Positions 15,394 to 21,749 are shown, counted from the first letter of the stretch. The stretch is 64,000 bases of DNA from Paramecium tetraurelia (GCA_000165425.1 CT868023.1:186001-250000); one strand, 5' to 3'. Numbers and translations: made by a program. The notes: generated by a model from the letters alone, not told the origin.

Positions 15394-16893
15394 TCAAGTT
15401 TCAATTTTTAATTGGATAGCCTATTTGGAAATTCTCTGCCTGGGAAACTTGGGAATTAATTTGGGAAAGGTGCCTTGACTCTGAAATGACCTAGGCAATT
15501 TACTCAATGTATTCGATAAGATATTTGGAGGTATCTGAGGCAATTCAAAGGTTGGGATTGTTTTTGCTGGTTTCACTTCCACTTCAGTCTTCTTTCTCTT
15601 GAGGAATAAGGGGTGATCTCTTTGATCCCTATTACCTTCAGTTTAAGGAATGAGCAATTCCTCGAATTATTGTTCACTTAATATAGAGATGGAACCATTC
15701 AACTTTTATATAATTGAGGACGAGATTGAATGATTCATGGTGGTCAGATTTTTAGGTGCCCTCTAACTTACGAGACTGTCATTTATATTTTATAGATCAT
15801 CATTTTGCTACTAAAATCTAGTTGTAAATTAGTGTGATTATTATTATTAAGAATTTGAAAGACTCATTTTTTTATTGTGATAGTTATTATTATTTTAAGA
15901 AGTGCTGGTAATTTATTCATATTCTATTTTAGACATTTGTACATTTTGTCTTTGCAATGTTTACTGGAGTTAGAGGGGGTCTTTGATATCCATCAAGGGA
16001 AAGGTTCTGTTTTTCTTCTTCTCTTGTTTACCATCATAGAATGTAACACCTTCCTTCATGATCATCAATTCGATTTAGGAGACTGAGGTTTTAATGGCAA
16101 ATTAATTGTTTTATCCAATATTTTGACTATTCTTACTAGTCAATTGTATGAGTTCTGATTGCACCTTGTGATTCGGGATAAGATCTCTCACCTCCACTAA
16201 ACTTCGTTTTTCACTGATATTTTAGAATGATTTTGGATATCTCTCAAAATCTGGAGGTTTCTAGACAACAACCTTGCCCTCATAATCAAAAGTGTATTTG
16301 GATTTGGAATCCACATTTAATCTTTTCAATTGCTTCACTTGTTCTTGGACTTCGAGTACTTTAATTTTGTCATTCTATTCTTTTTATTATTGAATTGTAA
16401 TTTATCTCAGTTTAGCCTACCTTATACTTTCAATGTTTGGGTCGAATTCTTATTCATCTTCAGAGTCACCCATTTTGATAAGCTAGGAATCAAAGCATTC
16501 GCTTGGTCTGGAAGTCCGAATGGTCATCAATTTGGACATTATTTTAGTATCCTTTCTCTGAATCACAGGAGAGTGGGAGTTTTCTTTAGACACACCCTAA
16601 GTGACTTGACCTTGACACCTCCTCCAATGTTCTATGTTGACAGCAATTGGCTCAGGGTCTTCAATAACATTTTCTTCAACATTGTCACTTCTCAAATTGT
16701 ACTCCTCCATCAATACAATAACCTACTCTCTGAACCAATTGTATCCCAATTGAGGCAGAATGGAGTTCATATGCTTGTTGACAATTATTGCAGAACTTTG
16801 TTGCACTATCAATTTGAGGATACTTTTGGTTATCCATTAGGATTCGACAAGGGAGATGCAAAGTTCTCCATAGATCGAGTCTTAGTCGCCCAT
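15394..16893 (-). CDS. hypothetical protein, possibly C2orf81/DUF4639-like
   Basis: MGDQDSIYGELCISLVE...EDPEPIAVNIEHWRR...KYTFDYEGKVVV...IQLKIET-TGA. The family suggestion rests only on the EPxxxxx(D/E)xW motif. Confidence 0.7.
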
Positions 16894-16943
16894 GAGCAGA
16901 ATATTATTATATTGATATTAATATAAAATAAATAAATTAAGCA

Positions 16944-19900
16944 TCAATTGTTATTTTTCTAGTATTTTTCTTCTAAGTATGCATACCTTCTAAGTTCCTT
17001 CTCCACCCAATAAGGACAGTCAGGAATTGAAACATCAAGAATATATTTAATAAGTAATAAGACATGTTCTATTGCAGCAAGGAAGAAAGCACTTACGAGG
17101 GCATCTTGATTCCCAATGATTCCCTTGAATTGCTCCTTATTCACAGTCCCAATCACTATGCAATTCATGAAAGTGGCACAATAATTCATGATTTCAAATA
17201 TCTACAACCAAATTCCAATTGAATCTGCAGCCTACGCTCGTTCTCTCTTCAGAATGTGTTGATAATTGTAAATTGACCATCTCAAATTGATGTAACAATT
17301 GATCATGAAAAACAAGGGAGCTGCAGGAAAAGTCGGAGCAAACATGGTCGTGTATCCGAATTGAATTGCAATACTTGTATACTCATCATATAGCACCTTC
17401 TATGGCTGTTTAATTCTACCAATCTCCAGTTCCTAAAGAAATGACAACTGTATTTCTGAATTCACTTGATCTGTACTGAATTTTTAATTGCAAATGTTGG
17501 GCACTTACTTCCTCTCTGCCAATTTCGTTGTGAATATTCTCTTGAATTCTGAAAACTTCTTAGAAAGAATCACCTTCTCCTACTTAAATAAGAAGTACGG
17601 CAAAAAGTTACTCTTCACATTGGATATCACTCCTCTCGTTATAATAATGCTAGCGACTGACACACTCAACTGAGAGGCATTATTCTCAAATATAGCCACG
17701 TAAACCACAGACACATAAGAGATCAGAAACTCAAAAAGGAACACCTTCAAAATGTAAGAGTATTCCTGTTCAGATTCATACATATGATTTTCCCACGTCA
17801 CCAATGATGTACACAGCCGTTTGTATAAATCACAAAACACTGTCATCGAAACTCCATTTAAAGAATTGATCACTATAGGCATAATTTTATCGTCTTTCCA
17901 TTCTTGTAACCACAGATTAAATGCATAAAAACTTACCACTATGATTGCTATCCCTATCAAAATGACAGGCCCTTCTGCAATCAACCGTCTCTTAAACGTA
18001 GTAAAGTAATCGTAAATCTAAATCTTGTTCGTCGCCTCATTTATGATATACTGACCTGTGTACATCACTCTTTAGGGTTGAGATTGTCTGAATTTGTGCA
18101 TGTCCCAACAAAATTTCAACTCAGACTCTCGATTCTTCCATTTCTCCATAAATAACGTAGACCAGAGTGTCATGAGTAAGGCGTAGAAAGGAACAATTGA
18201 AGAACTAATATACGTTTACTCGTTATTCATACTTGACTTCTTCTGTTATTATTATGTAAATTCCCAAAGCCGCTCCAAAGAGAGATGGTATCATGAGCCA
18301 ACCTATAATTTGTACATTTAAGGCTATGTACCATGCAACAACTGGGCCAAAATATGAGGCTATGGCATGCAAGGGTCTCAAAGCTATTTATTAAGTTTCG
18401 TATCGAATCGAATCGCGAATGCAGTTATTTTGCTGTTCATCCCAAAATTGGGTTATCTTTTCGCACTTCTGAATGTCTTCCAAAGGATAATGCGAGATTA
18501 TCAGTTTCTCTAATACGAATTTGTCAACATCAAATTCGTCATTGAGAGTGTTCAGTATCAGCATTTGCACCTGAAGATCCTTTGGAAATTCAAAGAAACC
18601 CCTCTTATCATAGTGAAATTAACATATATGCTACAATTAAAGATGTAACTTACTTTGGTTTTGAAATTGTAACATGATATCTGATAGAGGTGTGCCAATT
18701 GATAAACAGAATCAGGGGGCAATTTTAATACGTAATAATGAAAGAGTGATTTAACCTTGTTTGTCTTGGTGTTGTCATTGTACAGTTCCAGCTTATCAAG
18801 ATCTGGAGCGTGGAATATTAGAAATTCGAAGCTCCATCCTCTCTCTGCGAAAGTCTGTCTTATGTTTTGCAATTGCAGATACACGATGTCCTTATCTACA
18901 CTCAGAGTACCCTTGGTTTGAATCACATACTAATATCCCAACTCAGTTAAACTACTGATTGATTATTTGACTTGAATATTGTCTTTATAAAACTTCATAA
19001 AGTTTTGGTTGAAAGTCAATTCAAATGGTTTGAGACATCTACTATTGACTGTGTCAACTGATACCCCATGCAAGATCAAGGTCTTCATGCACCCATACTT
19101 TTCCTATTCGATAGCCAAATGTAATGCGTTTGATGGATTTTGATCTGTCAGTATGTTTATGCATTCTTTCTATAAAGTATAATCGCATATTAGATACCTT
19201 ATCAAAGATTTAATCTTTGAGTTATTTTTTGTTTTTGTGATTGCCTTCGCCAGAATAATCATAATATTCATAATCGTTTTCTAAGATGATTTTTAAGATC
19301 TTCAGTTTTCCCTTGAAGGCTGCAACATGAAGACAATTGAAGCCCTAATATACATTCAGGAAAGGGTTGCACTTCCTTTTTAAGAAGTAAATGAAAAATT
19401 CAGTGTTGCCCTGACTGGCAGACCAATACTGCAATCGACATTCATATATCTCATTTTTGGTTAGATTGGCTTTACTATGATAGATAGTAAACTTTTCCGA
19501 TTCTTTAAGGGTTTGCCTCTCCAGATCGTGGACATTGAATTTATTGCTTTTCTGATGTTACCTTGGATGGATGTGTTTTTAAGGAGAAGATTCCTGATTT
19601 AGTAATAAAGGAGGAGGTTAGGTTATAATGATATTACATTAATCAGCTTAGAATTAATTTTCCTGATTGGTTTCAGTGTTTTTTTGATTTAGATTGGAAA
19701 TCTTGATTTCTGGTATTTTCTCTTCTTCTGGTTCTTTCATCTCAATTCGAGAATCGTCGAAGAGAGGAATGTCAGCAATTTCATCGATATTCTTGGATTA
19801 TATCTTTTGACAGCAACTCCTTTGTTGGAACTTAATCAGTATTTATTGACTGGGAGTCTGTTTTTGATTTGTTTTGGGCATATTATTTTTGGAGAGGAAG

Positions 19901-20721
19901 GAGTTCGAGGTTTGACTTCGATGATAATTGGAAATATTGGAATATGGTATTCCATTTTTGGAAGGTTCAGATTCTGGTGTTGATTCGTCCTCCTTGATTT
20001 AAGTTTAAATGAAGGGTTGTTAGCTAGTTATGATGGTAGCTTATCTGTGCTTCTTCCTCTTGGGTTTTCTATTCAATGTTTGTTTGGTAGTTGCCTGAGC
20101 ATAATTGATTATTGTATTCTCAAATATTTCGCGAACTGCTTTTCTATTGGGTAATATCGAAATTTATACTTGTATTAATCTGGTCTATTCTCCAAAAACA
20201 AGTAATCGATGGGATAATTACCTTGTTGGTCAGTTTCTAATTGAAGCTAAAAATTTTTTGAGATCAGAAAATCTACTAATTCTTTGTTCCCATAATAAAA
20301 TGCCCAATGTAAAGGATTTGGCTTAGACGTATTAGATTGGGGAATTTGAGCACCGTGATCAAGCAATAATTGTATTGTCTTTTCTTGTTTCTCCGGATTG
20401 TATTCCCCAGAATACCTTTAGAATAAATTGTGATATTGAGTACCCTTTGATGCTTGCTAATTCTAGGGGAGTGTAGGAGTGCATATCTCCTTTGTTTAAG
20501 TCGATCATCTACTTGTATTACTTACACCACCACTTTAACAATTTATATTATCCCAAATAAGCAGCCCAATGCACCACATTTCTGTTTTAATCATCAACCA
20601 TAGAAAAAAATGCCTGCAGTTTCTATTGTGAAAACATTAACTATTCTTCGAAATGCTTTTTCAAAGTAGCCTTATTTCCATCCTTTACCCATTCTAATAA
20701 TTAAGTTTGAGTAATTTGCAT
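16944..20721 (-). CDS. ankyrin-repeat anoctamin/TMEM16 family protein
   Basis: Ankyrin motifs (NVVHWAAYLG, TPLELASIKG, NPLHWAFYYG, NCLHVAAFKG, NALHLAIE) run into the anoctamin core (YFGPVVAWY, FMEKWKNRE, WENHMYESEQEYSYILKVFLFEF, IQFGY..FAPTFPAAP, SIGIW, IPDCPYWV). Several tiny introns. Confidence 0.88.
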
Positions 20722-20963
20722 ATATTTTAAATAATGGAATAAATATTATATAAATAACTCTATTCATTCATCCTTTGTAACTGAACACATTCCAGATTCC
20801 ATCACTCAAAGTTGTTCAACACATGCGAGTTTACAGAATTTTGGAATTCCGATAATGATTTAATATATTAAGAATACGACACTTTTGCTAAAAGATTAAA
20901 ATAGGATCGTTTTAATACATATTAAAAATCCTTGATTTGTAAATATTATAATAAAAATAACAA

Positions 20964-21749
20964 ATGCTCACAAAGTTGGTTAGTTTGGGTAAGATCAACT
21001 CAATGTGCTTCAGATCAGTCTATCAATACAATGTCTTTGGTGCTCCTTTTGAAGGATTGGATCCAGCCAAACACATCTACATGAATAAAGGACTCTAAAA
21101 TCGTAATATTTTGAATTAAGCCTTCTAGAATACGACGATCTCTTCAGATTGGGAGATTACCCATATGTGAATGATTACCCTATAATGATCGATTCCCAAT
21201 AGTATGTCCCACAAATTGCTTAATTGGTGGAATCTCACGTCAAATAGTAATTCGTAAGACTTGTTATCTATTACAGCAAAATGCAACATTTACTGCTGGC
21301 GAGTACAATAATGGCGATGTCTGGGCTGCAACTTGGAATGAGCTTGGAGTCAACAATTTCAAAGTCTTGGTTCCAAATCTCTTATTGAGACTCTCTGAAA
21401 GTAATCCCAATTCATTGATGTCATTCTAGCCATCGTTGTCAAAGAATCAAAATGGACATGGACCAAAGAATAGAGATACAGATTGCATGTGACTCAAACC
21501 GTACTTGGACCATAAGATTATACTCAAATGCCTACTTACTATTTCATTAACGATTACAACACTGTTCTTTGGATGTTAGCAAGATAGTCCAATCAATGGA
21601 CATCCCCAGCAATCAGAGGAGTCCAAACTCCATTGGAGAAATAATTGCTCCAAGACTTATAACCAAAACCCAAGATTCAATCACTATTCAGAGACAGACC
21701 TGAAAATAATACATTCTTAAATAGGTTGTTAAAAGCAGTTCATCAATGA
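20964..21749 (+). CDS. putative mitochondrial protein of unknown function, 235 aa
   Basis: Introns of 26, 23 and 29 nt give a clean 236-codon frame. The N-terminus MLTKLVSLGKINSMCFRS is basic/hydroxylated and lacks acidic residues. C-ending codons are frequent, suggesting high expression. Confidence 0.75.

Follow-up and report, generated by a model that had tools for sequence, protein, structure and literature searches.

An ankyrin-repeat TMEM16 protein of Paramecium tetraurelia in which four of the five acidic residues of the orthosteric Ca2+ site are replaced

TMEM16 proteins are usually treated as Ca2+-switched. At the orthosteric site two Ca2+ ions are coordinated by five acidic residues, all contributed by helices 6-8 (PMC12618243), and in TMEM16A(ac) the ligands have been named as N650 and E654, E702 and E705, and E734 and D738 (PMC8640346). 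TMEM16K (anoctamin-10; PDB 5oc9, 6r65, 6r7x-z) is a lipid scramblase of the endoplasmic reticulum (ER) with non-selective channel activity, which is basally active without Ca2+ and is stimulated about tenfold by it (PMC6718402). The fungal proteins nhTMEM16 and afTMEM16 possess five acidic ligands and scramble in a Ca2+-stimulated manner (PMC12618243). In yeast IST2 (PDB 9hhe, 9qja) three of the five acids are substituted, a lysine, K443, stands in the place of Ca2+, forming a salt bridge and stabilising the open state, and scrambling is constitutive and Ca2+-independent (PMC12618243; bioRxiv 10.1101/2025.02.13.638165); IST2 is both an ER scramblase and a tether between the ER and the plasma membrane (PMC12618243), and its disordered C-terminal tail binds the plasma membrane and OSH6. 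A TMEM16 protein that has lost the switch and kept scrambling is thus already known, and the gene described here is not without precedent. This gene, from the genetically tractable ciliate Paramecium tetraurelia, encodes a TMEM16 domain preceded by two clusters of ankyrin repeats, and lies at 16944-20721 on the minus strand of a 64,000-nucleotide stretch of DNA (GCA_000165425.1, CT868023.1:186001-250000; hereafter the window). All coordinates are counted from the first letter of the window, and all features of the gene are on its minus strand.

The gene is annotated yet uncharacterised, its product, GSPATT00032964001 (P0181), bearing the public name 'Anoctamin transmembrane domain-containing protein'. 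Searches of open-access full texts revealed no study of TMEM16 proteins from Paramecium or other ciliates, of fusions between ankyrin repeats and TMEM16, or of these GSPATT identifiers. A Stentor preprint mentions an anoctamin only in passing, and a term search of a bioinformatic survey of the TMEM16 superfamily returned none of the words ankyrin, Paramecium and ciliate. Ankyrin repeats occur on no characterised TMEM16 protein.

The three helices that carry the orthosteric ligands were located by HMMER alignments and by a family consensus. Transmembrane helix 6 (TM6) contains the motif ISNVKSN (17607-17627), TM7 contains DEYTSIAIQFGY (17352-17387) and TM8 contains INCYINLRWSI (17271-17303), the three motifs that an earlier note, made from the sequence alone, had picked out. 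A single acid of the five is retained, E1069 at the position of TMEM16A E702; at the other four positions E654 corresponds to S993, E705 to S1072, E734 to N1101 and D738 to S1105. N650 corresponds to S989, and the two residues that we take to be numbered N651 and N730 in TMEM16A correspond to N990 and N1097. As aligned, then, the orthosteric site has changed from a cluster of five carboxylates to a polar pocket with one (S989, N990, S993, E1069, S1072, N1097, N1101 and S1105).

Across helix 6 the alignment of the last exon with TMEM16K is free of gaps (...ITSQILNQIMESFLPYW vs ...ITRGVISNVKSNFLPYF), and helices 7-8 are aligned by HMMER to both TMEM16K and TMEM16F. The consensus of 106 family sequences, ITRxxxxNxxExxxP in TM6 and DYxExxIQFGY...NNxxEIRxD in TM7-8, agrees with these alignments, by which the substitutions S, S, N and S read by eye in the earlier note proved to be exact. 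Of the site columns, that of TM6 is placed with the least certainty: in a phmmer-anchored table of 150 other matches, 45 have it unaligned. Its placement depends on the flanking ITR and FLPY, which contain no gaps and are common to TMEM16K. An exhaustive HMMER search of 1.84 billion representatives yielded 4443 relatives at E <= 1e-3, among which P0001 was the sole representative of the Paramecium clade and the next match was only 31% identical. The reading of the site columns is correct, because all four TM7/TM8 acids are kept in 116 of the 147 scorable sequences among the 150 other best hits; two or fewer are kept in 23 of the 147. The earlier note had allowed that an alignment might reveal acids retained or compensated. 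TM6 and TM8 contain no other Asp or Glu, TM7 contains only D1068 beside E1069, where TMEM16K also has an Asp, and no compensation for the lost acids is visible in TM6-TM8 of the aligned sequence.

A homology search with the last open frame of the gene recovered 13 Paramecium proteins (P0001-P0013) of 1215-1293 residues, each with Anoctamin and ankyrin families in precomputed Pfam assignments. The site columns of all 13 read S, N, x, S in TM6, E followed by S, N or D in TM7, and N (Y in one), N, S in TM8; the sharing of the substitutions by ciliate orthologs, proposed in the earlier note as a check, was borne out within Paramecium. Fifteen further members of the cluster, from P. tetraurelia, P. 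octaurelia, P. pentaurelia and P. primaurelia, all carry the TM7 motif, and 14 carry the TM8 motif, the remaining one giving no match to the TM8 search pattern. P. tetraurelia itself has six paralogs, this gene among them. Compared with the oldest paralogs (P0009-P0013), the Anoctamin domain is the best-conserved part of the protein at 61-63% identity. Paralog groups with no more than 61-63% identity in this domain all show one unvarying substitution pattern; the pattern is therefore maintained by selection, and loss of the site reflects neither chance nor decay.

The architecture of the protein, as proposed in the earlier note, is seen alike in Pfam, in the spliced gene model and in RNA: two ankyrin clusters separated by a low-complexity linker and followed, in the same gene, by an anoctamin core. 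Ankyrin cluster 1 (residues ~40-172; 20178-20604, including intron 1) is defined by Pfam Ank_2 and Ank_4 at residues 104-164 and by matches to pieces of the open reading frame (ORF), and is 57-59% identical to the oldest paralogs. The linker (residues 173-405; 19453-20177, including intron 2) is 233 residues long, with Q, K, I, N and S abundant in its composition, and is only 23-24% identical. Ankyrin cluster 2 (residues 406-548; 18996-19452, including intron 3) contains Pfam Ank_3 at 442-467, Ank at 504-532 and Ank_5 at 500-541, and is 54-58% identical. Between it and the TMEM16 core lies a pre-TM cytosolic region (residues 549-751; 18364-18995, including intron 4) that has no Pfam match, is 48-52% identical and, from its position, is probably the N-terminal cytosolic domain of TMEM16 proteins. 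The Pfam Anoctamin domain, PF04547 (residues 752-1201; 16986-18363, including intron 5), is matched at E 1.4e-89, with 301.5 bits against a cut-off of 28, over profile positions 1-459 of 460. The ankyrin-family matches in P0181 (Ank_2 at E 1.1e-20 in three stretches) form two clusters of ~130-140 residues, each with about 3-4 repeats as counted by eye. The clusters are conserved about equally to the pre-TM region, and the linker is not; this pattern indicates that both clusters are under constraint and that the linker serves as a spacer. Besides the Anoctamin and Ank families, Pfam finds in P0181 only a sub-threshold TauE match, and no EF-hand, IQ or OSCA/TMEM63-type domain.

The fold of the membrane domain is predicted with high confidence. 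An AlphaFold2 model of the last exon, from TM2 to the C-terminus, built on the 106-row alignment, has a mean predicted local distance difference test (pLDDT) score of 91.7 and a predicted template modelling (pTM) score of 0.86, and helix 6 is modelled as one long helix at residues 176-229 of the modelled piece. In a Foldseek search of the PDB the top seven matches are TMEM16K chains (TM-score 0.80-0.82, root-mean-square deviation 3.2-3.7 Å), followed by TMEM16F, nhTMEM16, afTMEM16 and TMEM16A, and all 50 listed matches are TMEM16 proteins. TMEM16K is also the best solved relative by sequence (E 7.6e-33 with the last exon, 8.1e-174 with the family profile); it shares the motifs ITR...FLPY, IQFGY and IPD and the conserved residues Glu259, Lys262 and Asp615, and differs in its intact two-Ca2+ site and its lack of ankyrin repeats, ~750 residues preceding the TM domain in the Paramecium protein. 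The fungal scramblases nhTMEM16 and afTMEM16 have the same fold (Foldseek TM-score 0.65-0.75), belong to the same sequence family (E 1.5e-12 to 1.7e-18) and lack ankyrin repeats. TMEM16A (anoctamin-1), a Ca2+-activated Cl- channel, is a more distant member of the family than TMEM16K (E about 1e-16 to 1e-17); its Ca2+ site is intact, and it has an animal N-terminal domain in place of the ankyrin repeats. By sequence and predicted structure, the protein thus classes as a TMEM16K-like TMEM16, a member of the branch to which intracellular scramblases belong.

The association of ankyrin repeats with a depleted Ca2+ site extends beyond Paramecium. In a Pfam scan of 153 of the hits, made in sets of 37, 67 and 49, ankyrin families were found in 11 (P0001, P0009, P0014, P0018, P0036, where the match is weak, P0037, P0044, P0119, P0120, P0141 and P0160), each of which keeps 1-3 of the five acids. 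No ankyrin repeats were found in the remaining 142, which include every intact-site hit, in agreement with the statement of the earlier note that canonical TMEM16 proteins lack ankyrin arrays. The nine ankyrin-bearing proteins other than P0001 and P0009 share the ankyrin and Anoctamin architecture, are 22-30% identical to the Paramecium protein, and come from environmental or transcriptome assemblies and, in the case of P0160 (XP_012199524), from the oomycete Saprolegnia parasitica. A word-based homology search for ciliate orthologues outside Paramecium, made with a five-sequence alignment, returned, at 230-1264 residues, only Paramecium proteins, one member of the alignment and two canonical anoctamins and, from 1265 residues up, only long Paramecium paralogs; look-alikes in the ESM Atlas were only generic anoctamin clusters.

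In a FastTree phylogeny of 161 domains all 23 ankyrin-bearing rows fall on one side of a branch with support 96, and the Paramecium clade is sister (97) to a clade of 11 rows in which a single acid remains. In a quick IQ-TREE analysis of 70 of the 161 rows under a mixture model, the Paramecium clade has support 100 and the sister relation 96, uniting 20 rows of which 13 bear ankyrin repeats. Of the seven rows of this 20-row clade without an ankyrin match, P0017, P0020, P0046 and P0067 are short or N-terminally truncated, and P0039, P0063 and P0065 have long N-termini in which no ankyrin match was found at E 1e-4. A single origin of all ankyrin-bearing TMEM16 proteins was considered and is not adopted here, its support being only 77 in IQ-TREE, with long branches, against 96 in FastTree; the 20-row clade alone is retained. 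Members of the sister clade (P0017, P0018, P0020, P0036, P0039, P0044, P0046, P0063, P0065, P0067 and P0119) keep their single acid at the TM8 E734 position, as Asp in ten and as Glu in P0067, and have at the TM7 E702 position a hydrophobic residue in most and Ser in two. That opposite acids are kept in the two clades suggests that losses at the site continued separately in each after gating had already been abandoned.

Among known systems IST2 is the best functional precedent. The two proteins have in common a TMEM16 domain without the conserved Ca2+ site and a long cytosolic appendage that includes a disordered stretch. They differ in that IST2 has three acids substituted and a lysine, whereas in the Paramecium protein four acids are replaced by Ser or Asn with no conserved lysine, and in that the appendage of IST2 is C-terminal and disordered, whereas that of the Paramecium protein is N-terminal and includes two folded ankyrin clusters. 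K992 was considered as a built-in substitute for Ca2+ in the manner of IST2 and rejected, since the residue varies between K, T and Q from paralog to paralog and intact-site matches often have K at the same place.

Because of the analogy with IST2 and the near-complete loss of negative charge in the site, we infer that switching by micromolar Ca2+ has been lost at this site. On balance we lean, by a little, towards a Paramecium protein that would not be switched by micromolar Ca2+ at the orthosteric site and would be either constitutive or under the control of its ankyrin modules, on which its position in the cell would also depend. The protein would form the usual dimer, homodimers being the rule among TMEM16 proteins, and the TM10/alpha10 region that forms the dimer in this family is conserved in its sequence. 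It would move lipids, and probably ions non-selectively, through the groove of each subunit, with micromolar Ca2+ no longer bridging TM6 to TM7 and TM8 as a switch. Activity would be constitutive, as in IST2, or set by binding partners of the N-terminal ankyrin modules. The two clusters, on a fast-evolving flexible linker, would serve for protein binding or anchoring, positioning or regulating the scramblase at a given membrane, rather than as a force-transmitting spring; a location in the ER, the alveolar sacs or a cortical contact site would be a guess.

Several points weigh against this reading. The Pfam Anoctamin score of the clade is low, at about 300 bits compared with roughly 340-540 for full-length hits with an intact site. 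The eight oxygen-bearing side chains of the pocket might still bind a cation weakly. The match of the family profile to IST2 (2.9e-34) is far weaker than that to TMEM16K, and IST2 is absent among the phmmer matches at E <= 1e-3, so that the resemblance is convergent and the two losses are independent. Nor, judging from the aligned residues, can the lysine mechanism of IST2 simply be transferred, since the position of its lysine, that of the second TM7 acid, is occupied by S, N or D in the 13 Paramecium proteins and K992 varies among the paralogs. Finally, Ca2+ sensitivity could remain in part through the side chains of a third site, discussed below, and one relative, P0037, shows that Ca2+ control can move instead of vanishing.

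The Paramecium gene represents, after IST2, a second, independent and more complete loss of the site, maintained by selection in six paralogs and always coupled to ankyrin repeats. It provides a natural test of what holds TM6 in the absence of Ca2+, and another of whether a protein-binding module can replace an ion as regulator. We tentatively raise a broader scenario, which we regard as doubtful: the ankyrin-TMEM16 proteins might be an old lineage of protists, comprising ciliates and related forms and perhaps oomycetes, in which orthosteric gating was abandoned early, the site then decayed along different paths, and control passed to ankyrin-bound partners; an EF-hand pair inserted in the TM6-TM7 loop may have restored Ca2+ control in one relative or more. 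The six Paramecium paralogs would then be partner-gated or constitutive scramblases at cortical contact sites such as the alveolar sacs, and this would constitute a mode of TMEM16 regulation of which animals and fungi offer no known example.

The alternative that survives best, although we consider it unlikely, is that the protein is still regulated by Ca2+. The ion would act at the TM2/TM10-alpha10 site, would bind weakly in the pocket where its local concentration is high, or would work by way of a sensor such as calmodulin on the basic cytosolic extension of TM6. The third Ca2+ site of TMEM16K has Glu259 and Asp615 as side-chain ligands, with Lys262 adjoining (PMC6718402). In the Paramecium protein the TM2 motif FMEKWK (18135-18152) supplies E815 and K818, aligned with Glu259 and Lys262, and the TM10/alpha10 motif SIPDCPYW (17007-17030) supplies D1190, aligned with Asp615. 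An additional Ca2+ site is reported to control TMEM16A allosterically (PMC7786149), and the pocket itself retains one carboxylate and several Asn and Ser. The wider group, moreover, can site Ca2+ sensing elsewhere: P0037, an ankyrin-TMEM16 relative of 1314 residues with two of the five acids kept, contains an EF-hand pair (EF-hand_1, _5, _6 and _7) at residues 975-1047, inside its Anoctamin domain, where helix 6 ends at ~923 and helix 7 starts at ~1062; the pair, lying between these two helices, may be a relocated Ca2+ sensor. On the other side, the mutation Asp615Asn in TMEM16K left scrambling unchanged with or without Ca2+ (PMC6718402). Equivalents of E815 and D1190 are retained in 120 and 125, respectively, of the 150 other best hits, whatever the state of the main site, and given this wide retention their presence may be only structural. 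The Paramecium protein also lacks an EF-hand or IQ motif in Pfam. The suggestion of the earlier note that the protein is Ca2+-independent thus stands in part: loss of orthosteric gating is a reasonable inference from four replaced acids and the precedent of IST2, but 'Ca2+-independent' is too strong a term for a protein in which the third site is retained.

We consider it improbable that the protein is a non-transporting tether, whose TMEM16 domain would only anchor or dimerise the ankyrin modules, the loss of the Ca2+ site having been accompanied by that of transport. The low Anoctamin score mentioned above is in keeping with such a scaffold, as are the hydrophobic residues at some former ligand positions in the sister clade. 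The membrane domain, however, is the part best conserved among the paralogs, exceeding the linker by far, and is predicted with high confidence to fold as a complete TMEM16K-like unit. IST2, too, had been reported to be inactive before its scrambling was demonstrated (PMC12618243).

The earlier note had raised the possibility, from a comparison with NompC and OSCA/TMEM63, of a mechanosensitive channel with the ankyrins as its gate or tether, which appears very improbable. OSCA/TMEM63 proteins are distant structural relatives of TMEM16 and are gated by membrane tension; besides this kinship, the only point for such a sensor is the co-occurrence of ankyrin repeats with a TMEM16 domain without a Ca2+ site. 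Like the Paramecium protein, NompC and TRPA1 carry ankyrin repeats N-terminal to a membrane transport domain, and the ankyrin part of the family profile weakly matches the TRPA1 repeats (E 1.1e-4), but the membrane domain is unrelated, and the arrays of those channels are long and uninterrupted, with 29 repeats in NompC. The Paramecium clusters are short and split by a poorly conserved linker of ~230 residues, leaving no continuous spring. An OSCA/TMEM63 domain is not found by Pfam. In structure the protein comes closest to TMEM16K, TMEM16F and the fungal scramblases, and no OSCA/TMEM63 chain is among the 50 listed Foldseek matches. The mechanosensory analogy is accordingly not sustained.

The coding region comprises 1214 codons and a TGA stop codon in the ciliate code. 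The start ATG (20721-20719) and the TGA (16946-16944), which is the sole in-frame TGA, coincide exactly with the limits given in the earlier note, and 40 in-frame TAA and TAG codons (26 TAA and 14 TAG) are decoded as Gln. The G+C content of the region is 28-37%. A raw reading in the ciliate code gives six overlapping minus-strand open frames, with Pfam Anoctamin (E 7.2e-83) in the last and ankyrin matches in four upstream frames. The five splice junctions were derived from a comparison of the closest protein, P0001, with the DNA, read by hand, and the spliced product is identical to P0181 in all 1214 residues.

Four public runs were aligned over 16600-21100: X6, the RNA run X8, and X20 and X21, both stranded oligo-dT. 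X6, whose label is only guessed to be RNA, represents spliced RNA, because its contigs omit all five introns at the predicted sites. In the resulting model, based on splicing and RNA, exon 1 (20444-20721, with an X6 contig over 20441-20716) is followed by intron 1 (20416-20443; 28 nt, GTA...AAG), exon 2 (20170-20415), intron 2 (20144-20169; 26 nt), exon 3 (19198-20143), which encodes the linker and the start of ankyrin cluster 2, intron 3 (19170-19197; 28 nt), exon 4 (18654-19169), intron 4 (18631-18653; 23 nt), exon 5 (18233-18630), which encodes the pre-TM cytosolic region and TM1, intron 5 (18205-18232; 28 nt) and exon 6 (16944-18204), which encodes TM2-TM10, alpha10 and the stop codon and is further defined by the alignments and the AlphaFold model. 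The X6 alignment places the 28 letters of intron 1 at 20413, where repeated boundary letters give the same spliced product.

In X6 a single contig, 2035 nt long, reaches from 20464 to 18325; its gaps total 105 nt, corresponding to the removal of four introns. It joins ankyrin cluster 1, the linker, cluster 2 and the pre-TM region to the Pfam Anoctamin domain, of which it includes the first 38 nt. The following X6 contig extends from 18331 to 17277 with the fifth intron removed, and an identical contig is present in X8. Reads of X20 and X21 cover 26 of 26 bins of the gene in both runs at a depth of 0.08-10; every one of them represents minus-strand RNA, and there are no clustered transcript ends within the gene. 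Taken with the continuous frame, the RNA contigs place both halves on a single mRNA, a point that the earlier note had proposed to verify by RNA. That the fusion is an annotation artefact, with the ankyrin and anoctamin halves on separate genes or transcripts, is scarcely credible: the Logan contigs do break at 18325/18331, where they share just 7 nt, and the raw reads give little depth (0.1-10), but a single open frame runs through all six exons, one RNA contig spans four introns and ends inside the Anoctamin domain, coverage is one-stranded and complete in two runs, and the same architecture recurs in 13 of 13 Paramecium proteins and in nine other matches, one of them from an oomycete.

Two positions differ in the RNA reads of the gene. 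G>A at 17268, which by codon reading is synonymous (Tyr), is seen in 2 of 7 and 4 of 6 reads; for C>T at 20575 the counts are 3 of 3 and 4 of 6. These are differences of strain or allele or reads of a near-identical paralog. In addition, 31 nt of exon 1 (20552-20582) occur within another transcript, with loose ends on both sides, in one X8 contig and three X21 reads, and this stretch is probably an ankyrin-coding word shared with a paralog or with another ankyrin gene.

The gene is flanked on both sides by transcribed sequence. Upstream, a divergent neighbour on the plus strand (20828-21100 and beyond) is covered at a depth of 400-860, compared with 0.1-10 for the TMEM16 gene. Numerous molecules have their ends at 20962-20978 and numerous others start at 21088, and no Pfam family was found in the open frames of this neighbour. 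Downstream, an ORF on the same strand (15394-16902) encodes ~500 residues rich in Q, N, S and K, matches no Pfam family and is transcribed at a depth of 2.5-17, its RNA contig ending at 16902, 42 nt past the stop codon of the TMEM16 gene.

Other fusions were observed among TMEM16 hits in which the TM7/TM8 acids are largely intact. P0072 carries N-terminal C2 domains, P0076, P0090, P0102 and P0127 carry C-terminal EF-hand pairs, and P0016, a protein of 2374 residues from Thraustotheca clavata, contains several tandem Anoctamin domains that are possibly merged gene models. Lastly, the P. tetraurelia paralog P0009 (1277 residues) is named in one source 'Protein required for meiotic chromosome segregation-like transmembrane protein', a name presumably transferred from Drosophila Axs, which we take to be a TMEM16 relative.

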